The translations under genes were made by a program, and so were the position numbers. Shown piece after piece: positions 29,470 through 64,000 of a DNA stretch of 64,000 nucleotides. Under the pieces are notes generated by a model. That model was not told the origin of the DNA. It saw only the letters and a program-made list of their open reading frames with translations, and made no database searches. The DNA is from Stegostoma tigrinum (taxonomy: Eukaryota): positions 434,001-498,000 of the forward strand of contig NC_081402.1 of the NCBI RefSeq assembly GCF_030684315.1, given 5' to 3'. Numbering within the stretch: the stretch's first letter is position 1; every line of letters starts with the position of its first letter.

Positions 29470-29980
29470 ATTAAAATTCTGGGTCCAGTGACCTTTCCAC
29501 AGAATTGATCGTGGCTGGGAAAACGTCAGTTTCTATGCAGATAAAAGGGGATGGTGATGGGGTTTGGAATAAATGATATGATAGAGCCTAAACAATGAGA
29601 AGAACATTTGGACAGAGTTGATAATGATCATGCGGGGAGGTTGAATAGTAGTTAATGGGAACTACTAGTGGGTGGTGGATAATGGCAGGGTAAGTGGTAA
29701 CAAGGCCTTGTGAGGGGTAGAGTTTAGGCCCAAAAATTATTGATCTCGATATTGAGTCCAGAGGGCTGCCGGGTCCCCAAGTGGAAGATGAGGTCTTGTT
29801 CTTCTAGCTTGTGTTGAGCTTCAATGGAACTCTACAGCAAGACAGAGACAGAGATTTGGACTGGGAACGGGGTGGTGCATTAAAGTGGCAGGCAACAGGA
29901 AGTTGAAAGTCTTTTTTGCAAGCAGAACATAGATGTTCTGCAAAATGATTACCCAGTCTATGCTTTGTTTCACAACTGGG
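29470..29980 (-). mobile_element. Penelope-like (Neptune-type) GIY-YIG 3' fragment
   Basis: CETKHRLGNHFAEHLCS..LPVACHFN in ORF 29804(-), matching the element at 56820-57100. Confidence 0.7.
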
Positions 29981-31103: not shown

Positions 31104-31300
31104 AAGCGAAGGCCAAGTTGAAAACCAAAGTGACCAAGAAAGCAGCAAATAAATGAACCTGTCGGTGCAACATGTAACCACCTGAACCCAAAGGCTCCTG
31201 TCAGAGACACTGACATCTCTCAGGAGAGAGCTGGGCCCGGATCAAAGGATCCCTGTCCCGGTTCCGAGTGGAGATATGGACATTAATTCATTTGAATAAC
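31104..31300 (+). pseudogene. H1: Orphan histone H1 3' fragment with degenerate stem-loop
   Basis: AAGGCCAAG..AAAGTGACCAAGAAAGCAGCAAATAAATGA..CATGTAACCACCTGAACCCAAAGGCTCCTGTCAGAGAC aligns with H1 52695-52840. Confidence 0.8.
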
Positions 31301-32744: not shown

Positions 32745-33065
<321 letters not shown>

Positions 33066-33095
33066 GCAAATCGACCCTTTTCCAGCGAACCCAAA

Positions 33096-33111
33096 GGCTC
33101 TTTTCAGAGCC
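33096..33111 (+). terminator. Histone 3' stem-loop (H4)
   Basis: GGCTCT TTTC AGAGCC preceded by CCAAA, followed by ACCCA and a purine-rich downstream element. Confidence 0.95.
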
Positions 33112-33790
33112 ACCCAAATCCTCCGATTGAGAGCGGAGACCTGAGGACGGAGAAGGCAATACATAGGAAAGGTGCAGCGACTCTTAAATTTTGTATCAAC
33201 CCCTTTAAGGAAATATATTAACTTCGTGTCCCGCGTTACAGGAGAGAGAGAGAGCGCGGATTTTCAAATTATACAGTCTGCAGTAACGTTTTATAATCAA
33301 GATATCCGCACACTACAGATAGAGGTTTCACGGCCATTCGAGATGTTACTGTTCTGCAGCTGGTTATGTCAGACACAAATGGAGCGGCCGGTTCCCTCAT
33401 TCGACCATGGCTGATCTGTTTTTCAACCCTCAACCTTTCATCCTCTTTCTCGTAAATACCAGTCTATCAATAATATTACCAGCTGTCCACGCCAGGAATA
33501 ATAATTTACTCTGCCCGTAATTTTGGGCCCACGCGCTAATGATACATATTTCAGTGTTTGTACTTCATTGACGCTCCCAGCAATGAGAATTTGTTCAGTT
33601 TTGATTCTGGTAGCCGTGCCGATGTTTTAGTGGCGTGTTCATTCTCCCTGCCTGTTAGAGACACATCAGGAAATGATTCAGAACCCTCTCCGCGCTGACT
33701 GCAAGAAATTTTGTAAAGCACAAGATATAGTCTTAGTTGCAGACGCATGGGACTTTACATTTTATTATTACCTAAGGTCAGGCTGAAATC

Positions 33791-33915
33791 GGCGGGCGAT
33801 TTGAAATGAACCAATCAGCCTCTGACAAATATTTTACTGCTTTTTCTGTCCTTCAGTGGCTGTTTCTCAGTGGGTTGAGGGACGGGACTGTATCCAATCC
33901 CAGCTCTAGGGCGGG
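33791..33915 (+). promoter_or_regulatory. H3 promoter: CDE/CHR-like element, two CCAAT boxes, GC box
   Basis: GGCGG-gcga-TTTGAA at 33791-33805; CCAAT at 33811 and 33895; GGGCGGG at ~33909; no clear TATA. Confidence 0.55.
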
Positions 33916-33961
33916 CTCTCCATTCCCTGAGTCGGCAGCGCAGCAGCAGGCTCAGCATTGA

Positions 33962-34465
<504 letters not shown>

Positions 34466-34831
34466 TCGATAGGCACTCTGACGTCTCGTCAAAGTAAACC
34501 GACAGCATGCTATTGATGTCGTGTCTCAATGCCACAGCTGTTACAGAAACTTAGTGCATCTCTCAGACCCGATTATTGCCCTGAGTTGTGAATCAGGTCT
34601 ATAAATGTCCAGTAATCACACCACAGTTCAAGCGCTGCACCTGACATTTTGCAAATTCCGATTGAAACGCGTGCGCCAATTACTCGCGTCCGGCCGCTGT
34701 TCTAGTTTTATTTCGGTTAAGGCGAAAACGAGAGGGATAGTTTTGCCTATTTAGACTCCCGTGTTTGCACATGAAATGAAAATTCTTCAACCAGCAGTGT
34801 CAGTCTAGCTGCTTTCACTGATGTTGTGAGT

Positions 34832-34847
34832 GGCTCTTAAAAGAGCC
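34832..34847 (-). terminator. Histone 3' stem-loop (H2A)
   Basis: GGCTCT TTTA AGAGCC on the minus strand, preceded by CCCAAA. Confidence 0.95.
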
Positions 34848-34877
34848 TTTGGGTTGTCAGGTTAATTAACGGTCTCT

Positions 34878-35330
<453 letters not shown>

Positions 35331-37057
35331 TTATACCTTCGGGAGGAATGGGGCTGCGGCCATTGCTGATTGGGCACATTGTTCAGTATCTCCTAATGTC
35401 ATTTCAATGCCCAATCAGATATCTGCTTCCCTCACCAATCCGGAGCGGGCCCGGGGAGGAGGCCGGAAAATCCTGGCGCCAAATCATCAACCGCTTTCTT
35501 TCAAACTCGGAAAGCCCGCCAATACTTTCAAAACGGGTAGAAGTTTTACAAAAACAATGCGTTCATACTTCAGATAATATACTTCACACCATTTCTGTCT
35601 GATTCTCCGGCCTAGTTGAATCCGTCTATTCTTGATCTTGAAGTTTTTTTTGCGACTAAAACTTAAGAATAAGCGGAAGGGGGAAAGAAAAGCCCGCCGA
35701 AAGTGATTCTCTTCACAGATTGAGTTTAATTTACATCAGCACCTGGATATAATGATAAAAGTATCACACGTCTGTTTCTTTCGCGTTGAGCGCATTACTG
35801 CTTTAAACAATATTTTACAATCGCGCTCCCTATTGCACAAGATCAACAATATTTCCACTTTTGCGATGCCGGTCTGGTTCTGTTCTTCCTTGATCTCGGT
35901 TCACTTGAAAATTTTTCCGCCGACAGCAGAAAAGCCTCATTTATAGCTTTCTGCAAAACGGGATAGAACCCGCGGGGAGATTTGAAAATAAAACAAAATT
36001 CCTCCGCGTGGAAACGGTAGGAAAATACCGGCTCCAAATCATCAACCGTTTTCTTTCCGATTTGAAAAAGCCCGCCAACGTGGGCAACACAAGGAAGAGG
36101 TTTTACAAGGATTTTTGCGTCAATGGTTACGATTTAATTTCCTTTCAGTTAAAAATGTTCACTTCACATAATCTCTCTCTTTGACTCCCTAAGCAACACC
36201 GTTTTCAGAAAATATTGTAAAATAGCCCTCACTTATTGTGCTGGATCAGTCTTTCCTGTCGGTCTCGGTTCATTTTGAAAGTCTCTCACCGACAGCAGAA
36301 AGCCCCACACACTGCAAACTGAAAAAAATCGGATAAATTTCCTTACAGATTTGGAAATTGAAAAAGGAATCGCACCACATTTTATTAATGAGACTCAAAT
36401 AAGAGATCAGAATTTTTCGTTCGCATGGGTGAAATCCAGCGTTCATACCTCATTGGGACAAATTGGAAAATCATGTCGGATAGGGGAGTTTTACAAAGAG
36501 GATTCAACAGTTTAATTTTCCTTTGAGCTTAATTCACTTTCACATTACAACTGAACGCTGACATATTTATAAAAACTTACACAACTTTTTTTTCGGGTTA
36601 AAACTTGAAGTTGCCCTCCCTCATTGTCCTTGAGCAGACAGTTTCACACTGGGGACTGCAATCCTGGTTCTGGCTTTATCTCAGCTCATTTTGAAACCCT
36701 CTCACTGACGGCTGAATCCTGAATGTCAGGTATTCTGCAAAATCTGTTCGTGGGACTCGAGCAATTAGTTTTCTTTCCAGGGGGTGAAATTCCTGATCAA
36801 AGGGGAAATAATAACTGGAACACATAGGAGTTGCTGAAAAAAAATGACGCAGTGACGATAAATATGCTTTCTGTACAGGGAAGGAAGAGAGACTGGGTAG
36901 GAAGGCAAACGAAACTAACGGACAGAGGGTCAGGGACCGCACGTAAATTTTTAGAACGTTTGTGTAAACAAAGATAAAGATTAGACATTAATCATAGAGA
37001 CCGAGAATCATTTTTGCAAACTTAAAATGGTCCAACTGCTTCATTGAAATTGTGGAT

Positions 37058-37073
37058 AGCTCTTAAAAGAGCC
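37058..37073 (-). terminator. Histone 3' stem-loop (H2B), terminal pair G-U
   Basis: GGCTCT TTTA AGAGCT on the minus strand. Confidence 0.85.
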
Positions 37074-37115
37074 TTTGGGTTTTGGATGTGTTTTTTCTCA
37101 GCACAGTGTGGGGTC

Positions 37116-37494
37116 TCACTTGGAGCTGGTGTACTTGGTCACCGCCTTTGTACCCTCCGACACGGCGTGCTTGGCCAGCTCCCCGGGCAGCAGCAACCGC
37201 ACGGCGGCCTGGATCTCCCGGGAACTGACGGTGCTGCGCTTGTTGTAATGGGCCAGGCAGGAAGCCTCCCCCCGCAATACGCTCGAAAATATCGTTGACG
37301 AACGAGTTCATGATGGTCATGGCCCTGAAGGAGATGCCGGTGTCGGGGTGAACCTGCTTCATCATTTTGTAGATGTCGATGGAATAACTTTCTTTCCTGG
37401 CCCTTGTGCTCTTCTCGCCGCCCTTCGCTGGCGCCCTCTTCACCACTTTCTTCGCGCCCTTCTTGGCAACTTGTCCTTTCTCCTCCTCCACCAT
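37116..37494 (-). pseudogene. H2B: Histone H2B, +1 frameshift; probable pseudogene
   Basis: [41 protein letters not shown], extra G in the run at 37268-37273, then [18 protein letters not shown]; 379 nt = 3n+1; several non-conservative substitutions. Confidence 0.85.
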
Positions 37495-37623: not shown

Positions 37624-37960
37624 AGATAATAAAGTGTGGAGCTGGAAGAACACAGCAGGACAAGCAGCATCTCAGGAGCACAAAAGCTGACGTTTCGTGC
37701 CTAGTCCCTTTACCCTTCAGAAAAGGTGGAGGGTGAGAGCGTTCTGAAATAAATAGGGAGGGGTTGGCGAATCAAAGATGGATACAGGAGAAGGTAGATG
37801 GAGAGGACAGGAGAGTTGCAGTGGGATAGAGATCCCCCGAGGTTTGTCTGGATTCTCCAGCATCTGCAGTAACCATTATCTCTGATGCAATTTTAACTTC
37901 ACTGCGAAGTGTCTTCCAAGGATGCCTACCCTGAAAAAGTCACCATCCTCCCTCCAGAAT
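37624..37960. mobile_element. Retrozyme-like/Penelope-like insert (inverted arm plus sense arm) abutting the H2B promoter
   Basis: Same sequence family and arrangement as 55060-55683. Confidence 0.75.
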
Positions 37961-42380: not shown

Positions 42381-44684
42381 CTGTAAATCAGCATCATCCA
42401 AGCTTGACAACCTCAATCAGAAAAACGTACGTTCCGTTGATAATTATGAGGATGTTTCTTTTCTTCAACTTCAACAGACAATGTAGCAGAGCTCCAAAAG
42501 TTTGTAATTTTAAATAAATCTATTGGACTGGAGCACATAATGAGACTTCTGTCTTTTCTTTGAAACCATCAGTTCAAACATAGGTCCGATTCCATTTTAC
42601 CTTGGAGGATTGCTTTCTTCATATATACATTTCAATCCCAATTGAGTGAAATCCAGAAACTGAACAACAACTGCACAGCTCCATCTGAGATGCTACCCAA
42701 AGATGCTGTAACATTGACACAGTTTGTATTACCAGATCCCAACACTAACTGTTGAAAACAACAATGGACACTACTTCAAATGTTATTGCTCAAGAAATAT
42801 AATCTGTTGTCTCCAATCTATGTCCTTTACAGGATTCTTATACGTCCATCGTCTTGTCTGTGTTTCCACTTTTAATTGTACAATGTGAAACAGTGGCCAA
42901 ACAAGGAGCATTTGGGCAGGGCCAGCATTGGCATTCACTGCTTTTCCCAATAATTCCAAACAACAGACATCAGTGGGTCATTCCCTAATTCCCTTCTCTC
43001 CCACTGTGAGCAAAGCAACTGGGCTGTGGGGAAAAGGGCAGAGAATGTTTCAAGCTGAGGCATTGGCCCTTTGTGGAGCTACAATGGAGCTCTTTCCCAG
43101 GGCATTTTAATAACTCCATGCCTCCAGCTCTCTCAGAATTTAATGAGCAATATTAGCGCTGGCCAAGTCTAAGAGACACGGAATGGATGGCAGCTAAGCT
43201 GCTTCTCTAGCACTGCTGAATATGACTGACAAGTGGTTAAACAGAATGTGAAATGCTGGACCAGGCTTTTTTCAAAGACACAACGGTACTTTTGAAAAGA
43301 GGTTATTCCAAAGCAAAAGGGAGCATCGCACAAACACCGGCTGCAAGAAGATTTGTTCGAGACAGTTTGAAGATTTGCAACAAACATTGAAGGGGACAGT
43401 AAATTCTGCAATAACAAACCGATGAACTAATGGGATTAAGACTCATAAAAAAATCTACAGGTCAAACAGGTTCACTAAAATTGATAAGCAATTGATTTCA
43501 GTCCATTCAGCGAAAGGATGTTGTCCCATTAGGTGAACAGAGTGAGTTAGGGTTAGGGGTATATATCATCCCGAAGAATGTCGGCCCAGCTCATCATGAA
43601 AACAGCAGATAACTAATTGCTACAAGATGGAGTTGTTTCTTTGAAATTATTCACAATATTAAGAAATTGGTTCCAGTTAAAGATTCTTCAGACAGATTTC
43701 AATGTAATTCTAAATATATGTATGTAATAAAATACAAATATTACTAAAAGCATGACGTGAAAAGATGCAAATATAGATATGAAAGTTAATTAGTCTCTGA
43801 AAGCTTTCCTCTGTCATTAAAGGAATGCCTGGCACATCCTAGAAGAAACAAATGCTCACAATTCATTCGCTAAAAGAGTGCTAAGAGGACGGGTACACGT
43901 AAAACTTTACAAGTAACTCACTCTATAATCAAATTATTATCATGAATCTTTTTGCAATTCATAAGAATCAACTCAGCGATAGCAAGACCTGCCAATGCAG
44001 CAGTTAGAGATAACACAACGTGGAGCTGGAGGAACACAGCAGGCCTGGCGGCATCAGAGATGGTGGAAAGTTCAAGTTTTGGGTCAGGACTCCTCTTCAG
44101 AAGCATCAACTTTCCTGCTACTCTGATACTGCTTGGTCTCCAAGTAGGAACTGTCTTTTTTTATTACAATTCAGACAGTGGGAAAATAAGACAAGTAACA
44201 GAATTTAATAGAAACAGGAAATTAATACAATTGACAGCAGAATTCAAGCAGGCCTGATAGGTAAGCAATTCTGGGGCATGACTGAAGGTGTACGGCCAGT
44301 AACTTGAAAAGTAAATTAATAGGATGTATGGAAAGATCCCAGGGCCTGGTGATTACATTGCCTGTTAAACATTATGAGATTGTGGTGAACCTTGGCCTGG
44401 CTATTGGAGGGCCCATCTTCAATTAGGAGTTTCAAAGGTTTGGTTGTATACAAAGGGGGAAGGGCACAGCGTTCGTGTTGTATTGGATTACTGTAACACA
44501 AAATGTATAATACTGTATTCCTTTGTGAGAATCAGAGCGTCATCAACCTCTCCTTTCCAATCTGAGCGAAAGATTAATGGGGTAACTGCATCAACAGGAG
44601 GCGGGTGGCTGCGGCTCTCTCCCTGCGTGATCTGGTGACTGGTTGACAAGATACTGCCATGGGCATGAATTCTGCCTGCCCCGA

Positions 44685-44838: not shown

Positions 44839-45649
44839 ATATTCCTAACATTTTGTAGAAACTGGCATGCAGAACAGATAAAGAGTACAAATGTTCTCGT
44901 GCAAACACAACGGGCTGAACGGCCTGCTTCTGTCCTGTACCAGGTCTATATTTCTGAGGCATTTTCATTTATCCATCTGTTGTATAGTGTATCAGGATAA
45001 AGATATCATGTAGAAATGGACAGACAAGCTTATTTTTTCTTTTGAAAAAGCTGGCCCAGTAAGTCAGCGTGGGCTGTTTCCTCTTTTAGGGCTCAATGGT
45101 ATCACTGAGATACTTAGTTTTACTTCATACTGGGATTTTTAAAAATTATTTATTTGGAGAATTTTATTCTGTATCTGACAGCCCATGCTGCATTCTCCAC
45201 TTGTCAGGCTTTGGCAGAAAAAGTGCATTTGCATTTCACATTATTTCATTTCTGTGTCTTTGTATGGGACATTATTCATCAAAAAGATAATTTTAGTCCT
45301 AAATAAAAACTCAAAGAACTTCAGGTGATGCAAGTCAGAAACAAAAATGGAATTTGCTGGAAATGCAAAGCAGGTCTGGCAGCATGTGAAGAGAAATCAT
45401 AGTTAACTTTTCAAACACTTCTTCAGTTCTGCGCAAAGGTCACTGGATCTGAAACATTAATTCTGATTTCTCTTCACAGATGCTGCCAGGCCTGCTGAGC
45501 TTTTCTAGAAAATTCTGTTTTTGTTTATTATTTCTGCCCTCCTCAGTCACTGATAATATCAAAAGTTTCCTTTCCTTCTATATTTTTACTCAATACCGAC
45601 TCCATATATCGTCATTTTAACTATGTAACAACTTGATCTGTTGGTATCA

Positions 45650-45845
45650 GATAAATGGAACTGCAGATGCTGGAGAATCCGAGATAACAAGGTGTGGAGC
45701 TGGATGAACACAGCAGGCCAAGCAGCATCGTAGGAGCAGGAAAGCTGACATTTCAGGCCTAATCCCTACATCAAAAACATCAGCTTTCCTGCTCCTATGA
45801 TGCTGCTTGGCCTGCTGTGTTCATCCAGCTCTACACCTTGTGATC
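45650..45845. mobile_element. Non-autonomous Penelope-like palindromic insert
   Basis: Inverted arms AAGGTGTGGAGCTGGATGAAC.. / ..GTTCATCCAGCTCTACACCTT. Confidence 0.75.
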
Positions 45846-46268: not shown

Positions 46269-46940
46269 CTGTAAATCAACATCCACCGAGTTTCAAAATA
46301 TCAAAAACTCATCAATAGAAAATTTCGTGAATACTCATGATAATTCTTGGTTTTAAAGCCAACAAATCACACAGAAAAGGGCCCAGTTACACAATTGACC
46401 TGGGTTCCTCCTCTTTCTTTGAGCAAAATTCTAAAACTATTAATATACAAAAACTAACCAGATCCACGAATGGAATGTTTACACGGTTCAATATCCAGCT
46501 CCCAATACAGGAACTATTGAAGGGAAGCACAACAGGCACTATTTCAAATATTTTACTGGAGACTCTTCATCCGGTGACTGCTATATTCTCCTTCGCGGGA
46601 TCAGCCCATTTGTATTCACTGCTTTATTTTGACACGGTTTAATGCAAACTCGGAACAAACAGCGTGAAACAGCAGCCAAACAATTAATTTCCATCAGTGT
46701 TTAGAAGACTAAAAATTTCAAGACTGCCCCCCAGGAGCAGCTTCTTGCCGCTGGGTCTCCCTCAGCAGGCCCACACACAGCCCAAGAAAGGCCTCTCTCT
46801 CCCCGCCCCCAGGCCGCTCTCTCCAAGTTCCGGGACCAGTTCCTGCTCCGCTCCGCCTCTTACCAACAGCCCCCGGTTCTACCTGAGCTGAGCCCGAATC
46901 AGTGCCGGTCTCGGAGCCCCCCTCTGTGTCCCAGACTCAC

Positions 46941-47132
46941 ATCTCGATGCGTTGCTGGAAGGAGCCTGCTGTTCTCTCACTTCCCTGGGCGCTGGCCTCT
47001 CCATTGCGGTCTCTTTCAAACAAACCTCTTCCACTCACTGAATAAATGCTCCTCAATGGCAGCTCAACGGAGAGTCTCACGCATGCGCTCCTCTGGTCAG
47101 CAATATGAGCATTGGGAGGGTCACGCATGCGC
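46941..47132 (-). promoter_or_regulatory. Unknown-gene promoter (two NRF1-like sites) and first exon
   Basis: ACGCATGCGC at 47079-47088 and 47123-47132; donor gtgagt at 46940. Confidence 0.55.
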
Positions 47133-48379
47133 TGCATTCCCCAATGAGTCCCAGCCACAAACATCAGTTGGTTCCTTCCCCAATTCCCTTTGCTCCCAGT
47201 TTGAGCAAAGCGAATGGAGGCTGTGGGGGAAATGGCAGAAAATGTTTCAAACTGGGGCATTGGCCCGTTGTGAAGCTCCAATGGAGCTCATTCCCGGGTC
47301 ATGTTAATGTCTGCCTCCCCCCGGTTTTCTCACAATCTGGTGGGGAAGCGGAGAAGCTGGCAGCCGTTCGGCCCATTTAAAACCACTGTGATATTTCATT
47401 CTGCTGGCCTTCGTCCCACATTGACTCTGTCAAGGTCACACACAGAGCGATGGAATAAATGCGACATTATTACGAAGGCAGAATGTAACTGTGGTGCGGA
47501 GTCTTGCGGCGCAGCGGTAGTTTCCCTATTCCTGGGTCAGAGGGGCCGTGCTAAAGCCACACCCGGACCAGAGGTGAGGACTCATATCCCTGGGCTCGAT
47601 GCAAATACCAGTTTGGAGTTGATGACTGATTTTATTCTCAGTCTGCTGCAGACAGAAGCCTTGTGATGAATGTGTTACCGCAACGAATGACCCAGCTGTT
47701 TTTTTCTTGTTTGCGCATTCCTGGGACGAAGATGTCTCTGGCTTGTCCCAGCATTTATTGCGCGTCCCTAGTTGCCCCCATTGAGAAGTTGGTGCTGAGC
47801 CACCTTCTTAAATAGTTCCGGTCCATGTGCTGCCCACATTGCAGTTCGCAGGTAGTTCCAGGGTCTTGATTGAGAGACAGTGAAGGTACGGGGACATATT
47901 TCCAAGTTAGGATGGTGGGTGACTTGGAGGGGAACGTGCCTAGTATCGAGGTCGTGTTCCTCCACATCAGCTGCCCAAGTCCTTTTAAATGGATGTTTTC
48001 GTGAGGATGGATGGTGGTCTTTTTGCAGTCTACAAAACTGTCATTTTACAGGGCTATTTAACACGGTTTCTGATACACAGAACAGGCGTACAAATTGTGA
48101 AGAAAATCAGCTCGAAAGAAAAAAAAACAAGTCTCTGAAGCTGGAGAACATTTCAAAGTCAGGACAGAAGGAAATACAAATGTATTGATTATGACAGCGA
48201 AAAGGAGGAAATGTGTACGCTTGCAGAAGCCTTAAAAAACTAACAGTTAATGTACTGATAAATATGTAAAATGAGAATTGAAATAAAACTATGTTGGCTT
48301 ACACAAATGTACATCCGTTACAATCAAAAAGAGGGGACTCTATTGTGGGGAATAAAAAATGGCTATCCAACTCTCTACT

Positions 48380-51140
48380 TTTGTTCTTTGTTCACAAAGG
48401 AAGACACACGTAACACACTCGGAATGTTGGTCAAACAGAGTTTAGTGAGAGAGAGAAACTGAATCAAATCAGTACTATTCAGTAAATTGTGTTGGGTAAA
48501 TTCAAAGGATTGAAGGCTGGGAAATACCAATGCCTGATAATTTATATCCCAGCGCACTTAACACAGTAGCCTTCGAAGTAATGCATGTTTTGCTCGTCAT
48601 GCACCAAAAAGCTACAGGCTGGCCAATAATTTCCAAAGATTGGAGTGCAGCTAATGTAAGCAACCTATTTGAAAAAGGAGGTAGCGATTGAACTTGGAAT
48701 TTTAGAGTAGTCAACCTGAATGAAAAGAAATGCAGATAGTTTGGGATAAAACGTCAGGATGAGGCAGAGTCGGCATGGATTTGAAAGGCCTGTTCCTCTG
48801 CTGTTCTGTTCTATGTTGCCAGCTTGAAAATTTCCTGGAGTAGAAATGGCAAAGGTGAGGTGTTAATTATAATTAACAAAAGCTTTCTAACCAAATCCCA
48901 CATAAGACATTAGCATGTTAAAATGTAAAGCATTGAGAATGACTAAATAAAACTAGCTGGATAACAGGAAATGCAGAGGGAATGAATGATCATTTTCTCA
49001 ATGTCAAGCTGTGACTTGGGGTCATGGCAAGAATCAGTTTTCGGATCAAAGCTCTTCACAATGTATTCACAATGGTTAGATGGGGGAAATAAATGTAATA
49101 TCTCCAGAATTATTGATGACACAAAAGTGGGTTGAATGGTCAGCTCTCAAAGAGGAAGCATTGATTGTGAAGAAGTCGAGTCAGTGGGCAAATGCATATC
49201 AGGCACTGAATAATGTGGATGAATGGAAAGGTATGCACTTTGGAAACAAAATAAAAGGAAGGCAGGCCATTTTCTGAAAGTTGGGAAATGGACACCGTGG
49301 AATTTGGAACGACACCCGGGTGCCCACGTAAAGCAATCACTGAAAGTAAGCATGTTCAAGCAGCAGGCAGTGAGGAAGGCAACTGGTATGTGTGTCTTCA
49401 TGGAGAGAGAATTTGAGTACAAGAGAATGGATAAATTATGACAATTTAACAGGGCATCTGTCAGACAATTCCAAGAATACTGACAGCAGGTTTGGACTCC
49501 TTATCTGAGGAAAGATGGTGTTCCTGTGAAGGTAGTTTTTAATGGGAAGATTGCTGGGATGGAAGGCGAGGCTGAATTGGTTGTGACTGTATGCACTGAA
49601 ACTCAGATGAATGAGGGACTGTCTGAGAAATCTGTAAGACACTGACAGGCCTGAACAATATAAATACAAGAAGAATGCTTCTGATGGTAGGAGTCATATT
49701 TTTCAGAGACAGGATAGGCCATTTAGGGCTGAGATGGTGATGATTGTCTTCATTCAGAGAGTGGTGTGCCTGTGGAATTCTCTGCCACAGAAATCAGCCA
49801 TGCCCAACACATTGTATGATTTCTAAAATGAGCTGGGTACAGGCCTTTTGGACAAAGGGAGTCAAAATAAAATTGGCTGAATGACGAGAGACTAAGAGTG
49901 AAGATGGAGGTGATAATGGGAACTGCAGATGCTGGAGAATCCACGTTAATAAAATGTGAGGCTGGATGAACACAGCAGGTCCAGCAGCATCTCAGGAGCA
50001 CAAAAGCTGATGTTTCAGGCCTGGATGATGGAGGGTTGATTTTCAGACTGGAGGCCTGTCACCTGTGGTGTTCCACAAAGATTGGTTCAGGGTCCTCTTT
50101 TGTTTGCCATTTGTATAAATGATTTGAATAAGAATAGAAGGCACGGTCCGCACATTTTGTGGATGATAACAAAGTTGGTAGCATAGACAGGAGTGGAGAA
50201 GGTTTCCCAAGATTTCAAAGGAATCTTGATCAAATCAGCCAATGGGCTGTAAAATGGCTGATGGAGTTCAATCTGGATAAATGCACGGTTTTGCATTTTG
50301 GTACAACAGTTGGCCTTATATGATTAATGGTTGAGCCTTGGGTAGTGTTGTAGAACCGAGGGATAAAGAATTCTTTGAAGTCTGCATCACATCGCAACAG
50401 GATGGTTAAGAAGGTGTTTGGCACGCTTAACTTCGTTACTCAGTCCTTTGAATTTAGGAGGTAGGCCGTCACTTTGAGGTTCGAAGGGGCATTGGTGAGA
50501 TCACTTCAGGAATAATGCGATCAGTTCTGCTCGGCCAGTTAGAGGAAGGATGTTATCAAGCTGGAGAAATTTGAGAAGAGATTCACTGGTATTTGCAGAG
50601 TATGTAAGGCTCGAGTTATAAAGAACGGATGGATAGGGGTCTAGGCCCGAAACGACAGCTTTCCTGCCCCTAAGATGCTGCTTGGCCTGCTTTGCTCATC
50701 CAGCTCCGCACCGTGTTTTCATGGATAGGCTGGGACTTTTTTTCACTGTAAAGCAGGATGTTCAGAAGTCACCTTCTCGAAGTTTATAAAATACTGATGG
50801 GGTGAGACAGAGTTAATGGTCGTTGACCTTTGCCTGGGATGGAGGGATTAGAAAACCAGGGCGGACATTTTATTGTAACAGGCAAGAGATTTTTTAAAAA
50901 AAAGACACGAGAGGCATTTTTTTAACATAGAACACGGAAGAATGTAGAATGAACTTCCTGTTGAATTGGTCTATGTGGCTATAATTACATTAAAACGACA
51001 TTTGGACAAGTGCGTAAGCATGACAGGTTTGAAAGGAAACAGGTCAGGGACAGGTAGATGGAGCTAATTCAGTTTGGCATTATGCTCGGCATCCACTGAT
51101 TGGACTGAAGGGTCTGTGTCCTTCTGTCTCTGACTCTGTA
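48380..51140 (+). mobile_element. Decayed CR1-type LINEs with small Penelope-like inserts (~49910-50030, ~50635-50720)
   Basis: Degenerate PQ.LV.GP.LF / DD.K motifs and 3' tails; the insert at ~50635 is flanked by ATGGATAGG. Confidence 0.7.
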
Positions 51141-52105: not shown

Positions 52106-52744
52106 ATGAGCGACAGTGCAGCCGCCGAAACGGCTCCTCCAGCCTCCGCCAGCACCAAACCCAAGCCTCCGAAGAAGAAGAAGGCGGCGGCTCCCAGGAA
52201 GAAACCAGCCGGTCCCGGGTTGGGCGAGCGGATTGTGAAGTTTGTCGAGGAGAGCAGCGATCGGAAGGGGATGTCTCTGGTCGCTATGAAGAAGGCGCTG
52301 CAGAGAAGCGGGGTCAATGTGGAGAAGCAAAATGCACAGATCAGGATGGCTATCAAGAGGTGTCTGGCGAAAGGCTCCCTGGTTCTGGTGAAGGGCCAGG
52401 GCATCTCCGGCTCCTTCAAACTCCCAAAGAATCCAGTCAAGGCAAAAGTGGGAAAGAAGGCGAGACCCGCAGCAGCCGCCAAGAAAGCAGCCGTGAAGAA
52501 AACAACGGCCAAGAAGGTGGCAGCCAAGAAATCCCCAGCCAAGAAAGGAACAGGCAAAAAAGCGGCCGGCAAGAAGACAGCAACGCCAAAGAAAGCGGCG
52601 AAGAAAGCAGCGCCTAAGAAAAAGACTCCCGTGAAGAAGGTGATAAAGACTAAGCGCCCCAAGGCCGCAAAACCGGCCCCGAAATCGGGGAAAACGAAGG
52701 CCAAGCCCAAAGAGAAAGTGACGAAGAAAACAGCAAAGAAATGA
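52106..52744 (+). CDS. H1: Linker histone H1 (212 aa)
   Basis: MSDSAAAETAPPA..; globular domain ..RKGMSLVAMKKAL..VEKQNAQIRMAIK..KGQGISGSFKL; Lys/Ala/Pro tail with SPAK/TPKK motifs; stem-loop. Confidence 0.96.
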   Translation: MSDSAAAETAPPASASTKPKPPKKKKAAAPRKKPAGPGLGERIVKFVEESSDRKGMSLVAMKKALQRSGVNVEKQNAQIRMAIKRCLAKGSLVLVKGQGISGSFKLPKNPVKAKVGKKARPAAAAKKAAVKKTTAKKVAAKKSPAKKGTGKKAAGKKTATPKKAAKKAAPKKKTPVKKVIKTKRPKAAKPAPKSGKTKAKPKEKVTKKTAKK

Positions 52745-52780
52745 AGCAGTCGGTGTAACATGTAACCACCTGAACCCAAA

Positions 52781-52796
52781 GGCTCTTCTCAGAGCC
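52781..52796 (+). terminator. Histone 3' stem-loop (H1)
   Basis: GGCTCT TCTC AGAGCC followed by ACCCA; AAAGAACT downstream element at ~52813. Confidence 0.92.
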
Positions 52797-52842
52797 ACCC
52801 ACATCTCTCAGGAAAGAACTGAGTCTGGATCGAATGATCCCT

Positions 52843-53016
52843 TAGAATAACATGGTGCAGAGCTGGATGAACATAACAGGCCAAGCAGCATCAGAGGAGC
52901 AGGAAAGCTGACGTTTCGGACCCAGATCTTTCTTCCTGCTCGGCCTGCTGTGTTCATCCAGCTCTACACCTTGTTATTTCAGACTGTCCAGCATCTGCAG
53001 TTCCGTCTAGATGTCA
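52843..53016. mobile_element. Penelope-like palindromic insert downstream of H1
   Basis: TSD AATGATCCCT at 52833-52842 and 53017-53026; empty site visible in the paralog at ~31245. Confidence 0.85.
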
Positions 53017-53586: not shown

Positions 53587-53791
53587 AAAATGGCGTTAGC
53601 AGCGCATGCGCGTTCCTTCCACCTAACGCCAAAAACGCTGGCAGCCGACGAGAGGAGCGCATGCGTGAGCCCCGCCCTCAGCGCTACTATTGAGGAGCAT
53701 TTTCTCAGTGAGTGGAAGAAGTTTGTTTGAAAGAGACCAACGCCCAGGGAAGCGAGAGAACAGCAGACTCCTTCCAGCAGCGCATCGAGAT
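53587..53791 (+). promoter_or_regulatory. Unknown-gene CpG-rich promoter (YY1-like, two NRF1-like) and first exon
   Basis: AAAATGGCG at 53587; GCGCATGCGC at 53602; GCGCATGCGT at 53657; donor AT/gtgagc at 53792. Confidence 0.6.
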
Positions 53792-54537
53792 GTGAGCCTG
53801 GGACACAGAGGGGGGCTCCGAGACAGGCATTGATTCGGGCTCAGTTCAGGGAGAACCGGGGGCTGTAGGTAAGAGGCGGAGCGGAGCAAGAACTGGTCCC
53901 GGAACTTGGAGAGAGAGAGGCCTTTCTCGGGCTGTGTGTGGGCCTGCTGAGGGAGACACAGCGTCAAGAAGCTGTTGCTGTGGGACAGTCTTGAAATTTT
54001 TAGTTTTCTAAACACTGAAAATTCACTGTTTTGGCTGTTGTTTCACGCTATTAGCTGCGAGTTGCGGGGAGGTGGGGGACCTGTAAAGGACGTAGATTGG
54101 AGTTAACAGATTATACGTCTCGGGGAAAACATTTGAAGTAGCGGCTGTTGTTTGTTTTCAACGCATTGTTTTGGGGTCTGGTAATGAGCTGTGCAGCATC
54201 TTCATGTCGCACCTTAGGTGGAGCTGTGCAATTATTGCTCAGTTTCTGAATCTCACTCAATTGGTATCGAGTTACATATTTTAAAAAATAGTCTTCAGCC
54301 AGGGAGCAGCTCGATGTAAGAATGGAATCAGACTTGTGTTTGAATTGATGCCTTTAAAGAAAAGGCAGAACTCTCAGGACACAATGTTGTGGTCCAACAG
54401 GTTTATGTAATTCCATTAGCTTTTGGAGTTCTGCTCCTTTTGAGAGGCGAAGTTCAAGAAAAGAAACACCCTAATAACTGTGAACTGAATATACATTAAT
54501 CTGTTTGATATCAAATTTGGCTGATGTTGTTTTACAG

Positions 54538-54645: not shown

Positions 54646-55059
54646 GCATGTTACCATGATCAGAATGGAGAATAGCTTTCCCATAGTCAGAGTGGATTGA
54701 ATCAGACTTATATTGAGCTCAATTTCCAGATACTTGTCGAAGAAAACCAACCAAGTACAACTGAGGAAAGGCAAGTTTCTTTTTTTTGTTTCCATTGTCA
54801 ATTGACATCATGCTAGTTCTAGTTAATGTCATTCATAGTCCATTAACATTCACATTTTAGACTAAAAACCACAAGACTGTCCCCCAGCAGCTTCTTGCCG
54901 CTGTGTCTCCCTCAGCAGGCCCACAGACAGCTCGAGAAAGGCCACTCTCTCTCCAAGTTCCGGGACCAGTTCTTGCTCCGCTCCGCCTCTTACCGACAGT
55001 CCCCGGTTCTCCCTGAACACATGCAAATGTTGAAAGTACTCAAACAGGAACTGAATCAA

Positions 55060-55683
55060 AGATAATGGGAACTGCAGATGCTGGAGATTCCAAGATAATA
55101 AAATGTGAGGCTGGATGAACACAGCAGGCCAAGCAGCATCTCAGGAGCACAAAAGCTGACGTTTTGGGCCTAGACCCTTCATCAGAGAGGGGGATGGGGG
55201 GAGGGAACTGGAATAAATCGGGAGAGAGGGGGAGGCGGACCGAAGATGGAGAGTAAAGAAGATAGGTGGAGAGAGTGTTTGCAATGGGAGAGAGATTCCC
55301 TGAGGTTGGTCCGGAGGGAGGAGGGTAACTTCATCCAGCCTCACATTTTATTATCTTGGAATCTCCAGCATCTGCAGTTCCCATTATCTCTGATACTATT
55401 TTAACCTCACTGCGAAGCCTCTTCCAGGGATGCCTAACCTGAAGAAGTTACCCTCCTCCCTCCGGACCAACCTCAGGGAATCTCTCTCCCATTGCAAACA
55501 CTGTCTCCACCTATCTTCTTTACTCTCCATCTTCGGTCCGCCTCCCCCTCTCTCCCTATTTATTCCAGTTCCCTCCCCCCGTCCCCCTCTCTGATGAAGG
55601 GTCTAGGCCCGAAACATCAGCTTTTGTGCTCCTGAGATGCTGCTTGGCCTGCTGTGTTCATCCAGCCTCACATTTTATTATCT
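55060..55683. mobile_element. Retrozyme-like non-autonomous element: inverted arm plus 327-nt terminally redundant monomer with hammerhead core
   Basis: TCCAGCCTCACATTTTATTATCT repeated at 55334 and 55661; CTGATGAAGGGTCTAGGCCCGAAAC at 55591-55615; TSD AGGAACTGAAYCAA at 55046-55059 and 55684-55697. Confidence 0.75.
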
Positions 55684-55736
55684 AGGAACTGAACCAAGTT
55701 TACATTTAGGAAGGGTATGGTATAATGTCTCAAACC

Positions 55737-55771: not shown

Positions 55772-57480
55772 AACTCCTCCTACCACCCCCTTGATCATGA
55801 CCCTGTTCCGATCACCAAAACATCATCTTCCAGACCATCCACAACCTCAGCACCTCCGGTAACCTCCCAGCAACAGCCTCTGACCTCATCTTTCCCCAAT
55901 GCCATGTTAACTGTTTCTGCCTTATTCCCAAAATCCACAAACCTGACTGCCCCTGCTGACCCATTGCCTCTGCGTAACCCTGCCCCACCGAACTATCTCC
56001 AATTATCTCAACTCCAATCTTCCCCCCCCCCCCACTTCCTCCGTTATATCAATGACTGTATCAGTGCCACCTCGTGCTCCCACAAGGAGTTCAAATAGTT
56101 CATCTACTGTACCAACACCTTTCACCCTAACTTTACATTCACCTGGACCATCTCTGCTACATCTCTCTCCTTCCTGGACCTCCCTGTTTCCATTTCTGGC
56201 AACCACCTGGAAACTGGTATCTAATTCAAACCAACCGATTCCCACAGCTACCTAGAATACACCACTCATCATCTAGTTTCCTGAAAGAATGCCATCCCCC
56301 CCTATTCCCAATTCCTTTGTTTCTGCTTCATCTGCTCCCGAGTTGAGGCATTCCACTCCCGGTCATTGCCGATGTCTTTGTCTTTATTTTTCAAGGACAG
56401 CCATTTCCCCTCCACAGTGGCTGAGTATGCCCTTAACCTCATCGTTCTCGTTTCTGCAACTCGTCCCTTGGACCCCCTCTCGACAATAACAACAAAGTCA
56501 GAATCTCCTTTTTCAACATGTATCACTCCATCAAACTCCAGATTCAACACATTTTCCTCTGCCACCTCCAATCTCACCCCACTCCCAAGGACACTCTTCC
56601 CTCCTCACCCCTATCTACCTTCGAGAGGGACTGCTCTCTCTGACTCCCGCAACCACTCCACACTCCCCACGAGCCCCACCACCCCGGCACTTTACACTGC
56701 AACCACAGGAAACGGACACCTGCCCCAACATCGCTCTCCCGCTCACTCTCTCCACGTATCCCTATCCCAGGTCCCAAGAAAACCTTCCACGCCAAACAGA
56801 TGTTCAGCTATATGTCCGCTAATGCGGTGCATTGTATCCACTGCTCCTGATGTGGCCCCCTCTACATTTGGGAAACCAAGCAGAGGCTTGGAAACCATTT
56901 TGTTGAACACCTAAACTCGCATTGTGACAAACGACTGCATCTCCCAGTCATGAACCACTTCAACACCCCCTCCCGCTCCTTGGACAACATATCCATCCCA
57001 GGCCGCCTCCAGTGCCACAATGTTGCCACCGGAAGGCTGCATGAATAGCACCACATATTTCACTTGGCAGCCCTGCAGCACCATGTTCTAAATGTGGGCT
57101 TCAAAATCTCTCCATCCCAAACCCATCCCTGCCTCCTTGACCTGTCCATCTTTTCTCTGACCAATCTGCATCTCCCACCTCACTGACCAACCCCCGCCGG
57201 CACTTCCGGCCTACTAACCTTATCCCTGCCTGCTTGACCTGTCAGCCTTCCCTCAACCCACATCCGAACTCCCTCCCTACACTTAGTGTTACTGGCTCCA
57301 GCCCTTTCTTGACTGGCCATCTGGTCCTTTATCCACCTTTTCGTTGTCATCTCATCACTTCTCTCTATTTATTGCAGAGTCCCTTTCTCTTCCCCCATTT
57401 CTGACAAAAGGGTCCAGTCCAGAAAAGTCAGCTTTCCTGCTCATCTGCTGTGTTCATCCAGCTCTACACCTTGTTACCCC
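55770..57480 (+). mobile_element. Decayed Penelope-like element (Neptune-type; RT plus GIY-YIG)
   Basis: FLRYINDCI (YIDD-like), FLDL, DSHSYL, then NAVHCIHCS*CGPLYIWETKQRLGNHFVEHL..PVMNHFN; many stops and frameshifts. Confidence 0.85.
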
Positions 57481-58619
57481 CGCAAAGAAAGACATCATGT
57501 TACATAGTTTGAACAACAACAACATGTGACAAGTACTGTTACTGACAAGTAGCAAATCACTACTGAGCACATTGCAGACACACAGACAAAGCTGCTGACT
57601 GAGTCCCAAATATGCTCATTGTATCAACGCAACATACAAAGACTAACAACAATGTATACCCATACACACTGCAGATAACAGAAGCAAATAGATACAAAAT
57701 GTTTACAGCTTTTTTTTTTAAGAAAAGCAAGTGTGTCTACAAAACAGCAAAGAAGACCTTTCAGCCCATCGGGTTGTTAATAGACAAAAACAAGTGCCTG
57801 ACAATTCTAATCCCATTCAGCCAGCATTCCATTTCAATAAGTGTGTCGTGGCAGTATACGATTTGCCAACCCCCAACTTTATCACAACGTGATTCTCAAC
57901 GTGTTCACCTTCAGGAATAGAAACCATATTCTCCATCTGTCTTGCAAAATTTATTTTTTGGAGTGGGGGAAGCATTGAAGTGAATTTGGCAACTAAGTTA
58001 AACAGTTTTCCTGTGTCACTTGCTCCTCGCAATGAAATATTGCAGAAACGAGCAGGAAAACAGAATGCTGTTTCTTCACGTTAATGATGTAATCACCATT
58101 TAAAGCAATGAAGAATGATCTGTTAAACTAAATCTTGTAATTGTCAATTTTTTTTTTCACAAGGAGTTTGACCATGTTCAATAAGTTTAAATCTTCTCCA
58201 CTCCAAGACAGAAAATACAAGTCCTTTTTCTTTCTTCATCCCCACCACAGTGCATTGTAAGAGTATTGCTGATGTTGTGCACCATCACACATCAGAGCAG
58301 GGTTATGTCGTATCCGTGGTAGAATAATTAAGTGAATTAGCCAATACCCTTCCCTGTAGCAGGAACATCGTGGTCATTCAGCTGAATACAGTTGATTTGT
58401 TCATTGCCCCTTTCCTTTAGACTCGAAGGAAAGGGATGCCACATCAATCTATTCCCTCGGCATTATTCACAAAATTATGTTACTATGCACTCAGAAAAGC
58501 TGATGTCATCTTGAAGAACAGCCCTTGATATAATTTCTGTCAGTTAGACTCTGCACTGTTAGAGTTACAAAACCTTTTGCTTTTACATTACGCAATCCAT
58601 TGTACAAAACAAATGCATG

Positions 58620-61520
58620 GAGCAATAACTGACAGGTACAGATTGATAACTGCATTCCTATGTTCTTAAAGCAGAAACTGACAGGCGTGGGCTGATAACT
58701 AAATCCACAGATTCACAAAGCAGCAGCTGGCATATACAGATTGATAACTATACTTCGATATTCACAGAGCAGAAACAGACAAATATTGACATCTGTACTC
58801 TTATTCATGTGGTAGAAACATTATATGTACAGATTTCTAACTCCACTCATTAACACATACAGCAAAACTGACAAGGAGCAATTGCTTATGTTTCTATACC
58901 AGGACTGGCAAATCCAAATTGCTAAGCACATTCACAGCACACTCACTGGCTGATAGGCAAAGATTGATAAATGCCCTGAAATAGTCCTTTAACAGAGACT
59001 ACCAGTTACAGACTTATAACTGCACACTCAGACACACACAGAGCTAAAACTGACAGGGACTGACCGGTAAGTGGACCCAGACGTTCACGCGGTAGTTACT
59101 GACAGAACTTTTGGTAACAAATCTATCATATCCACACAGCAAAAACTGACAGAAACAGATTAATAATAAAACTCCCAGTTTCACATTAGTTATCAAACTG
59201 TACCTGTCAGTTTAAACAATCAGACATTTTCACAGCAGAATCTGACAATAACTGATCGATAACTAAACTCAGATTGACAAGCAAATACAAACAGGTGTAG
59301 AAATGACAACTACACGTGCATTGACCATCAGAAACTGATGGTGTAGGTGCACACCTGCACTCATTCACATGGCAGTAACAGAGAGCTACAGCTTGATAAC
59401 TACAGTCACCCACCTGCATTACAGTAACTGTCAGGGGCAGGTTGATAACACTCACTCATTTATATGACAGAAACTGACATGTATTGATAATAACTAAACC
59501 CATATGGATATAGCAGAAACTGACAGACTGATAATGACACTCGCATTATCACTGCAGAAACTGAGATTTATAACTGCACCCTCTCATTCACGTAACAGAA
59601 ACTGAGTGTACAGATTTGATAGCCATAGCCGCACATTTGTATTGCAGGTCAGTGACAGGGATGGGATGATCCTTCCTACAAAATGTTATAAGAAAGCAAG
59701 AAAACAATGTCATTTGTTCAAATTATCAACGTAGCTTCCCGCAAATCCCGATGTCCTGAAAATCTACAAAAACTTGATTGGGTCCTGGCGATTTAGCCAC
59801 CTTTTGGGGTTTTTTTTTCTGCCTCGAACACCACCTGTTACGTCATGTGGACTGTTTTCAAGACATCCATATTTATTTCCCCAAGTTCCCTCGCCTCCAC
59901 AAGGACAGAAGGAAAACTAAACTCATGTTCACGGAAAAGAAACATGGGGAGAGAATGCTAATTACTCACATTCACAAACTTGAAACTGACAAGTGCAGAT
60001 GAATAACTGCACTCGGATTTACAGAGCAGAAGTTGATGGTGTCAGCACGATAAATGCTCTCGATACTTTCAGAGCAGAAACTGATGGTGTATATTCATAA
60101 CAGAACTCTTACTTTCACCTTGCAGAAACTGACAGGTATTGATTAATAACTGCACTCAGATTGACAAAGCAAAAACTGACAGGATCAATTTGATAAATAC
60201 ACTCTTCGCAGAAACTGACAGATCAGTTCTGTCATGGTGACATTGTAAAGCAAGTAAAATTGGTTATGGGCATTGCAGAAATTGACAGGTACAGGATGAT
60301 AACTTTCAACACATTAACCAAACAGTGACTGGAAGAGACAGATTGATAACTGCATTCCGACATGTTTCTTTTTTTGAAAATTTATTGATGGGACGTGTGT
60401 GTCACAGACTATCCTTAATTAGGCACAGAAGGCAGTTCGGTCCCAACCATATTGCTGAGAATCTGGAATCACATGTAGGCCAGACCAGGGAAGGATGGGA
60501 GACTTGGTTCCCAAAAGGATGTTAGAGGACCAGATTTATTTTGTGGAGAATTGTCAGTCAACTTTTTTCTTAGCAGATTGTTGAATTTTAATTCAACAAT
60601 CTGCTTTGATGTGACTTGAACTGCGGTCGCAGAATAACATCTGGCTCTCTGTAATAATAGTCCAACAACAATGCTATCAGACTGTTACCTTTTCTATTCA
60701 CATTCACAGAGTTGAACCTGACAGTTATGGATTGGTAACTACACTCTCAAATTCACTGAGCTGAAAGTGACGGAATAGATTGGTGACTGCACCCTCATAA
60801 ACCTAGGATGCTGACAGGAGCGGATTGATAACTGTATGCACAAAGACACATTGCAAAATTTGGCACATACAAATTGATAGATGCACTCACACATTAGAAA
60901 CCAGAAACTGATGGACAGAAGGTAATAACTAATTAATAATTCACAGCAGAAACTTACAGGTATAATCCTGATAATTACACAAGAATATTCACTGGTGAGA
61001 TACTGACAAGGTTCGGATTGATAATGACAATCGTATCCGTACAACAGAAATTGGTTGGTGCGCACTGAAAAGCACACTCTCATAATTACAGAACAGAAAC
61101 TGACAATCACAGACTGATAACTACATTTTCATATTCACATGTCTGAAAATGACAGTATGATTTAATGAATATGGTTGCATTTTTACAAGCAGAGACATTC
61201 AGGGTTATGTTAACAACTGCACCCACACATTCAAAGCTCGGAACTGACAGGTAAAGATGAAAAACCAAGCTCATGTGTTGACATGGCAGAAACTGAGAAG
61301 CAAAGTTTGAAGCCTGCTCTCTCATTCAGACAGCAGAAAACGACTGGCTGAGATGGATAAGTACACTCACCTTGCAGACACTGACATGAATATTCCCACA
61401 TCACAAACAATCAGGTAAAGACTTAGAACGACATTCTCATATTCACAAAGGGGAAAAATAAATATCACGGTCAAGTACAATTTGATAACTTCTCAAATAA
61501 ACACAGAGCAGAATCTCACT
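58620..61520 (-). repeat. Degenerate ~48-bp tandem repeat array in reverse orientation, interrupted by LINE and SINE pieces
   Basis: Repeated GCAGAAACTGACAGGTACAGATTGATAAC, the reverse complement of the 24650-26350 unit. Confidence 0.85.
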
Positions 61521-62199: not shown

Positions 62200-62930
62200 A
62201 ATGTTGACTTGCTTGTTGAGCTGGCTTGCTTTTCTTCATACAGTTCATCACCACGCTCTGTGGCATCATCAGTGGAGCCTCCAATGAGTCAATGTTATTC
62301 CACACCCCGTGGAATTTATACTGTGTGGTCCATTATGGTGAGCACTGTCATTTCTGGTTTTGATCTGTATGAGTTTTCATTTATGGAGTCCGATTCTATA
62401 ATCTTGTTGATTTGAAGTATGGATGGAAAACCATGCCTCTAGGAATTCCTGTGCGTGTCTGTGTTTAGCTTGGGCTGCCATGGTTACTTTGTCCCATGTT
62501 AACCTGATGGCCTTTATTGTCTGAATATGTGATACATTCAGAGAATGAAGGCCATCAGTTGAAATGGGATGAAGTAACCATATTAAAAACAAAGAACTGT
62601 GATGCTGTAAATCAGGAACAGAAAACAAACTTGCTGGAAAAGCTCTGCAGCTCAGCAGTAACTGGTTCTGAGGAAAGGTCACTGGACCCAAAAGGCTAAC
62701 TCTGTTTTTCCCTTCACCGATGTTGTGAGACCTGCTGAGCTTTTCCAGCACCTTTTGTTTTTGTTGGATACAGTAACCACAGCAGCTTAAGCCAAATATA
62801 GACATTTACAGGAATTCCTGGAGACATGGTTCACAACACAAACATAGAATTGGACCACATGTGTAAACCCATATAGATCAAATCTTTAATGACAGTACTC
62901 AGCATAACAGGCCTGACAGTGTAAAGTTAT
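62200..62930. mobile_element. Poseidon-type Penelope remnants in both orientations with a nested palindromic insert (~62585-62765)
   Basis: AQAKHRHAQEFLEAWFS on the minus strand; ENEGHQLKWDEV and AKYRHLQEFLETWF on the plus strand. Confidence 0.65.
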
Positions 62931-63484
62931 TTTCAGCAATTTCTATGTGTTTGTATTTCTTTCTGTCACCCGATGAGTTCCCTGGGGGGAGAGGCAATTT
63001 AAAATATTGTCTAAAGACGGTGCGCATGATTAATGTGCTCACCCGGTTAAAAACGAAAAGTTATCGATTGGTTTATCAATATATCGAGGTGTTTTTGAAA
63101 TGCGAAATGAATAATCAGGTGCAGAGTGCAGATTTTGGCCTCTTTTTGCCGCTTGCAGAAAATCCGATTCAAGGTCAGAAATGGACATTGCACTCGGTTC
63201 GGGAATGCGGGAAGGGAGATGAAGTTAAATATACATTCATAATCTAAAAGTAAATTAATTCGTGCATTCTATTCTGTTAAACGTCCGACATTTCGTTACA
63301 TATTGGCGGGCATTTCGAGTTTGAAAGAAAGCGGTTGATGATTTGGTGCCATGATTTTCCGGCCTCCTCCCCGGATTGGTGAGGGAAGCAGATATCTGAC
63401 TGGGAAAATGAAACGACATTAGGAGATACTGAACAATGTGCCCAATCAGCAATGGCCGCAGCCCCATTCCTCCCGAAGGTATAA

Positions 63485-64000
<516 letters not shown>

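Follow-up and report, generated by a model that had tools for sequence, protein, structure and literature searches.

A hammerhead-bearing insertion in Stegostoma tigrinum as a probable deletion derivative of a Penelope-like element

The insertion at 55 kb of the window (the whole 64,000-nt stretch of Stegostoma tigrinum DNA analysed here) is very probably a deletion derivative of a Penelope-like element (PLE). Its 327-nt unit runs, in order, through a tail, a leader, the first 22 codons of an ORF, a jump, the end of a 3' UTR, a minimal hammerhead and the end of a pseudo-LTR (pLTR). We moderately favour the more specific reading that it is a non-autonomous, internally deleted PLE (a "mini-Penelope"), which would have been mobilised in trans by the RT/GIY-YIG endonuclease of a PLE. 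The sequence-only reading had described a non-coding, retrozyme-like unit behind which stood Penelope machinery. The machinery is supported; the unit holds no full ORF, but 22 codons of an ORF start lie inside it, and the term non-coding does not quite apply. The features on which the analysis draws are the following.

55046..55059, plus strand: left TSD, 14 nt; its last bases resemble the continuation of the element (ATCA)
55060..55335, minus strand: inverted arm, 276 nt, which begins within the ORF start, crosses the deletion junction, the 3' UTR and the hammerhead, and reaches 3' end site B at the tail's far end
55156..55187, minus strand: minimal type I hammerhead on the inverted arm, with a CpG-type transition at 55165 that turns the conserved G12 into A
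55330..55332, no strand: head-to-head junction of the arms, microhomology TTC
55330..55356, plus strand: 27-nt end of the upstream pLTR, repeated at 55657-55683 as terminal redundancy
55357..55389, plus strand: PLE "tail", 33 nt, between two preferred 3' end sites, both ending ATTATCT
55390..55429, plus strand: 5' leader of the PLE body; with the tail and the ORF start 87% (96/110) identical to 37849-37958
55430..55497, plus strand: ATG with 22 codons that match the N-terminus of P0001 exactly; deletion junction at 55497/55498
55498..55588, plus strand: pyrimidine-rich end of the PLE 3' UTR, low complexity; aligned identities 65/89 with the coding neighbour's UTR end, 66/89 with the 37.6-kb copy
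55589..55620, plus strand: minimal type I hammerhead with a 2-bp helix I, core from 55591, unpaired A, 4-bp helix II and cleavage site after 55618
55621..55683, plus strand: pLTR sequence past the hammerhead, ending at 3' end site A
55684..55697, plus strand: right TSD, 14 nt; GGAA after one base, like the continuation of the element
37624..37958, no strand: older related copy, with an inverted arm at 37624-37852, a 4-nt overlap at the junction and then a sense arm ending at 37958
55790..57476, plus strand: separate, older, decayed coding PLE with stops and frameshifts, not part of the insertion; 3'-end reference within the window

The sense arm (55330-55683, 354 nt) consists of the 327-nt unit and a 27-nt redundancy, and the insertion amounts to 1.08 units. 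A 32-nt direct repeat at 55330 and 55657 (97% identity, spacing 327) is in register with the repeat pair that had been placed at 55334 and 55661. Aligned with the unit continued in a circle, the inverted arm needs no gaps and shows 6 mismatches in 276 nt, one of them at the junction; this bears out the earlier description of a ~270-nt inverted arm of very high identity. The two arms are joined head-to-head at the 3-nt microhomology (5/6 if extended). The 14-bp TSD also proved real: its copies are identical at 13 of 14 positions and directly adjoin both ends of the element, and each of its edges looks like a continuation of the element itself. We rejected a site at 48454 as an empty-site paralogue; it matches the TSD at 13 of 14 positions, but its flanks are unrelated. 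A MITE or DNA-transposon reading was rejected as well, because the arms are not terminal inverted repeats with fixed ends and stop at two different sites of the family. Among the other repeats of the window, a GC-rich dispersed repeat has four copies (28643-29024, 46647-47101, 53644-54063 and 54859-55018), of which the one at 54.9 kb breaks off at about 55018, a short way ahead of the insertion site, and degenerate tandem repeats of 47-49 nt are common to 21280-25800 and 58600-61400, in opposite orientation.

This layout has the structural marks of PLEs, in which partial tandems, inverted 5' copies, tails of 30-40 bp, TSDs and internally deleted derivatives have been described (PMC8557442, PMC3846280), as have tandems, inverted pLTRs and 3' extensions (PMC8969392). 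The insertion has a partial-tandem pLTR (27-nt redundancy at 327-nt spacing), an inverted, 5'-truncated copy at its 5' end (the 276-nt head-to-head arm), arm ends 33 nt apart that correspond to a tail (for the concept, see PMC11167929, PMC8557442, PMC3846280), and a minimal type I hammerhead within the pLTR, where the motif is present and mutated. It thus resembles the EN+ PLEs (Penelope/Poseidon, Neptune) in its partial tandem pLTR, inverted 5' copy, tail and TSD, and these elements and their derivatives also in its minimal pLTR hammerhead and its internal deletion (PMC3846280, PMC8557442, PMC11167929). It differs from them in that nearly the whole ORF is gone, with 22 codons left. Its ATG lies about 40 nt downstream of the tail, whereas the anole and rotifer elements are described with the ATG inside the pLTR. 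The Chlamys element MRC1 likewise represents short non-coding PLE derivatives with pLTRs and an autonomous-like 3' end, but is described as algal, of a different clade, without a canonical hammerhead and in many cases multicopy in head-to-tail order (PMC8557442).

The unit carries a coding remnant. With the ATG at 55430 it has 22 codons that match exactly the N-terminus of the Stegostoma tigrinum protein P0001 (a 66-aa query gave one hit among 82 candidates, with 100% identity over 33% of the query, E 9.3e-4); the 22 of 22 matching codons support the proposed shark origin. P0001 runs on as an ORF past the shared codons, its similarity to the window ends at 55497, and from there on the unit corresponds in alignment to the decayed element at 55790-57476, namely to its 3' UTR end, hammerhead and terminus. 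The junction at 55497/8 is present in both arms and was therefore already in the template. The ORF region is shared by proteins of the whale, epaulette and bamboo sharks (3 hits among 392 candidates), and the same N-terminus opens longer ORFs in Hemiscyllium and Chiloscyllium (P0003, P0004). All of P0001-P0004 are truncated or frameshifted, and our searches retrieved neither intact donor DNA nor a full-length ORF with this N-terminus. The missing middle of the element would measure ~3 kb, if one goes by the average PLE length of about 3 kb (PMC6765202).

Pfam returned no relevant family for P0001, P0003 or P0004, the neighbours of the P0004 N-terminus in the Atlas are HEAT-like and uninformative, and a prokaryote genome scan for stray shark contigs gave 0 matches. 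In a representative-protein search with the 66-aa frame (5 hits), only P0001 is a real relative; P0005-P0008 are unrelated, mostly repetitive proteins and were discarded. A rolling-circle ORF was rejected too, there being a stop in each of the six frames of the circularised unit and no ATG in the single-stop frame. The shark reference models P0001 and P0002 appear to take in PLE ORF sequence as mis-predicted exons: P0002 is an acid-phosphatase-like model that ends in PLE ORF sequence, and P0001 holds a peptide resembling the translated tail.

The decayed neighbour at 55790-57476 closes with the same hammerhead-pLTR family as the 55-kb unit, in another subfamily. Read by eye in its translation, it appears to hold motifs of an RT, a linker and a GIY-YIG-like domain, and its decayed linker may be Neptune-like. 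Pfam found no relevant family in pieces of the element, a homolog search with its endonuclease-like stretch gave 0 among 199 candidates, and PDB sequence searches gave nothing significant; the Atlas offered a lead (0.94) to eukaryotic clusters of rotifers and flatworms, with DUF8422 on 19-23% of members. At 29804-30142 (minus strand) we noticed an endonuclease-like fragment that is 67% identical over 36 aa to this neighbour and lies beside a recurring repeat (4390-4906, 8508-8909, 13597-14094, 30079-30353, 47731-47991); fragment and repeat are probably the 3' ends of another PLE family.

The older copy at 37.6 kb shows a similar jump. Its sense arm holds the tail, the leader and the ORF start and is then cut off at 37958, while the jump leaves the ORF at codon 23 and lands no more than about 5 nt away from the UTR position reached in the 55-kb copy. 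Identity to the unit is 84-88% outside the low-complexity segment and 74% inside it; this post-junction segment is simple enough that 11 of 2000 shuffles score as well over its first 48 nt. The near-identical jump hints at the deleted form being a family, and we consider a family of independent copies likely. On the other hand, the ORF-bearing P0001 is closer to the 55-kb codons than the 37.6-kb copy is, which may point to two deletions that occurred separately. The sequence-only reading had seen at 37624-37960 an older copy of the same layout; its inverted arm and the start of its sense arm are indeed there, but a second hammerhead is absent and no convincing TSD was found at this copy (the best is 7/8, far from the ends). 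The locus probably counts as a second independent copy, sharing the ORF-to-UTR jump. The opposing possibility named in the sequence-only reading, a unit that is just the pseudo-LTR of a coding Penelope element without independent copies, is half borne out: the unit consists of PLE end sequence and the start of a PLE ORF, yet it goes beyond a pseudo-LTR alone and probably has this second copy.

The older copy lies ~130 nt upstream of the ATG of an H2B-like gene (37063-37494) that appears frameshifted. This gene belongs to a replication-type histone cluster (32754-37494, 52106-52821, 63301-64000) with H4, H3, H2A, H2B and H1-like ORFs, which we take to be these histones by recognition, and six Rfam Histone3 stem-loops; the C-terminus of the H3-like gene is altered.

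The same end sequence recurs in the window. We aligned to the unit 21 arms at 14 loci (13 besides 55 kb), leaving out the 37.6-kb sense arm and adjusting arm ends by hand with the help of TSDs and BLAST. The arms end at two main sites: 11/21 near site A (the equivalent of 55683), 8/21 near site B, 33 nt further on, and 2/21 elsewhere. Among the seven head-to-head pairs with both arms in the window, five have one arm at each site. Starts are also concentrated, with 10 of the 21 lying at unit positions 229-237, at the core (235) or immediately 5' of it; these ten lie 25-33 nt upstream of the cleavage site (263), at which none of the 21 starts. TSD-like direct repeats of 8-18 nt with at most one mismatch surround most short inserts. 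Diagnostic bases divide 18 arms into two subfamilies, one with the 55-kb and 37.6-kb copies and the other with the coding neighbour. The closest relative, at 14.9 kb, has arms identical at 64/64 positions that have a core mutation in common, which means either that the ribozyme was already dead when copied or that one arm served as template for the other; the latter could reflect fold-back copying or conversion.

Ten short inserts of this PLE end were recorded (7906-8101, 13300-13530, 14865-15060, 32066-32143, 32402-32525, 44008-44139, 45644-45845, 49912-50025, 50637-50721 and 52846-53004). Many are head-to-head with TSD-like repeats. The 5' ends of the ten inserts gather a little upstream of the hammerhead core, which may mark an RNA 5' end, the inserts then being strong-stop-like cDNAs. 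The insert at 32066 landed in an N-terminal ORF fragment of a related PLE (31250-32060, minus strand; tblastn to P0001, E 2.6e-12), which passes into different pLTR-like sequence near 31500 and is possibly a second deletion derivative or a nested insertion.

Hammerhead core positions are numbered here by the established nomenclature. The sense-arm core reads GAAACATC, as had been reported, and the short stem I is also confirmed, helix I being 2 bp. Both cores carry CpG-type changes: G12 to A at 55165 in the antisense core and G16.2 to A at 55616 in the sense core. The latter breaks the ACGU palindrome needed for dimer cleavage, which the consensus of the family retains in its core GAAACGUC. 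Judged by these changes, the ribozymes of the 55-kb copy would be dead. A strict core pattern found 0 intact cores of this family in the 64-kb window, and Rfam, at E up to 5 over the whole window, listed no hammerhead family among 17 matches; a MIR408 match on the arms was dismissed as a reflection of the inverted repeat. The active hammerhead fold is predicted at -3.6 kcal/mol, against an MFE of -11.8 kcal/mol, and would cost about 8 kcal/mol. Hammerhead pairs form in 82% of cells, with covariation not above shuffles (114/500). Cleavage is probably dispensable.

The motif itself is of a known kind. Minimal PLE hammerheads have an unpaired base after the core, a G-C closing pair and a palindrome in place of helix III, and metazoan ones occur as opposite-strand pairs 100-700 bp apart with low activity even as dimers (PMC4209133). 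Ours have the unpaired nucleotide after the core, the G10.1-C11.1 pair, palindromic 15.2-16.2 and no helix III, and form an opposite-strand pair at such a distance; the 2-bp helix I at 55 kb is also seen in a D. virilis variant, whereas the 4-bp helix II and the core mutations of both 55-kb copies depart from the hammerheads described there (PMC4209133). We also observed a hammerhead-like core at 44763 (plus strand) that ends GAAACGTC, has a different helix II and is apparently intact, with a related stretch at 62209-62288; it is probably the pLTR of another PLE family.

These observations can be assembled into an insertion mechanism along lines known from other PLEs. The protein of an anole PLE cuts and extends both strands, its RT starts internally at two sites bracketing the tail, the first 172 nt of the ORF are required, and uncleaved RNA is used (PMC11167929). 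At 55 kb, the PLE enzyme would have cut both strands about 14 nt apart, as the PLE literature suggests. Each DNA end would have primed cDNA internally on uncleaved RNA, one at site A and the other at site B, and the two cDNAs would then have been joined at a short microhomology. Self-priming has been favoured for head-to-head junctions (PMC3846280) and may have operated at the perfect palindromes at 7.9 and 14.9 kb. The 27-nt overrun of the sense cDNA would point to a donor transcript of the form pLTR-body-pLTR, or with more tandem units. The many inserts of 95-130 nt may have arisen where cDNAs ran to an RNA 5' end near the core or, alternatively, where the RT stalled at the pyrimidine tract. 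More tentatively, the enzyme may bind the RNA at the ORF start, which would be why this part was kept, and several independent insertions may make the deleted form a family.

A circular or multimeric template had been proposed for the insertion. The copy is indeed longer than one unit, but a linear transcript of pLTR, deleted body and pLTR gives the same 327-nt period, so no circle is required, and we regard the template as likely linear rather than circular. Should the enzyme require RNA of the ORF start downstream of the site where it begins, a further unit at least must have been present in the donor, for which a multimer or a circle fits equally well; this would also account for the kept ORF start.

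The main competitor of the trans-mobilised, internally deleted PLE is a bona fide non-LTR retrozyme, with arrays elsewhere giving multimeric RNA, dimer self-cleavage and ligated 327-nt circles, copied by a PLE RT over 1.08 units. In the published definition, metazoan retrozymes are expressed tandem repeats that have canonical type I hammerheads and form self-paired circles, and the minimal PLE hammerhead is set apart from their canonical type (PMC7229834). A 2026 preprint takes two consecutive complete units as the definition and derives vertebrate retrozymes from PLE pLTRs, those of one chondrichthyan (mean 363 bp) included, and it reports solo monomers; pLTR homology is the argument of its main text, in which the word "deletion" does not occur (bioRxiv 10.64898/2026.07.22.740005). 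The 55-kb locus shares with the described retrozymes a ~330-nt unit, a type I hammerhead, the lack of a full ORF, a TSD >4 bp and PLE pLTR homology, and with 327 nt, a 22-codon relic and a 14-nt TSD it lies within their published range (150-450 nt, no protein, TSD >4 bp). The chondrichthyan average and solo monomers of the preprint, a sense arm exceeding one unit, a second locus with a similar junction and the palindromic core kept in the family consensus all speak for this reading. It is nonetheless rather unlikely. None of 11 TRF rows in the 64-kb window is a tandem array near the 327-nt period, which disappoints the suggested array search within this scope, and the window holds no intact core of the family. 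The hammerheads are minimal and, at 55 kb, both mutated, where a retrozyme would have intact, typically canonical type I ones, and the ORF start is kept. The unit is 46.5% paired with a GC content of 51.1%, while retrozymes are highly self-paired with GC <50%, and it folds no better than shuffles (circular z +0.73 over 150 shuffles, linear z +0.55), so that no stable self-paired circle is predicted. Close relatives stop immediately 5' of the core, a position suggestive of an RNA end or a stalled RT, and in vitro cleavage was reported for 1 of 9 predicted Xenopus retrozyme dimers (10.64898/2026.07.22.740005). The locus behaves like the PLE-dependent element that a retrozyme is thought to be, but should not be classed as one, and the earlier assignment to retrozymes in the published sense is not upheld.

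Two readings stay closer to an ordinary PLE. The 327-nt unit might belong to an autonomous PLE that has it built in as a terminal duplication or a partial tandem, the insertion being a 5'-truncated copy of the end of that element. Only 27 nt are copied upstream of the unit, the 22 codons are identical to an ORF-bearing element, and axolotl PLE copies with tandem minimal hammerheads are known (PMC7229834), but the UTR of the 57-kb coding copy, though of the other subfamily, holds no ORF-start sequence (local score 28 vs 102 for the 37.6-kb copy); we consider this origin unlikely. Very unlikely, in our view, is the absence of any lasting mini-family, with a deletion recurring at a hotspot by a microhomology template jump or by splicing of nearly the whole ORF, so that the 55-kb and 37.6-kb junctions are independent. 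Junctions about 5 nt apart, the greater closeness of the 55-kb codons to P0001 and the microhomology deletions and introns known in PLEs (PMC3846280) are what it would predict; against it, the 55-kb junction was already in the template of both arms. The trans-mobilised, internally deleted PLE is the reading that we retain.

The arms differ at 5 of 273 nt, or at 3 without the two CpG changes. At 7e-10 per generation, a rate that goes back to the epaulette-shark mutation rate (PMC10587355), this corresponds to about 13 (or 8) million generations, with a range of 4-65 million; the estimate assumes arms identical at insertion, so that different templates or RT errors would make the insertion younger and conversion would make it older. 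At about 8-13 million generations, the youth in the earlier description is doubtful and recent activity is not supported. Literature searches, which went by titles and abstract starts, listed no paper describing this shark element; Repbase or Dfam may already have an entry for the family.

On present evidence the locus belongs to ordinary repeat biology: all of its structural features are PLE hallmarks already in the literature. The added value is anatomical and modest: an ORF-start-to-3'-UTR junction at two loci, which shows a way in which a PLE can give rise to a hammerhead unit of ~330 nt and suggests what cis signals stay. A more far-reaching reading, to which we give little probability, is that of an abundant, long-lived carpet-shark mini-Penelope family between PLE and retrozyme, reduced to cis signals (tail, leader, first 22 codons and hammerhead), with intact arrays elsewhere, dimer cleavage and circles copied by internal initiation. 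If it were true, such an intermediate would provide a sequence-level deletion route and a substrate with which to test PLE RT on circular RNA. Were the arrays and circles to exist, the mobilisation of retrozymes by PLEs, so far a hypothesis, would become directly testable.
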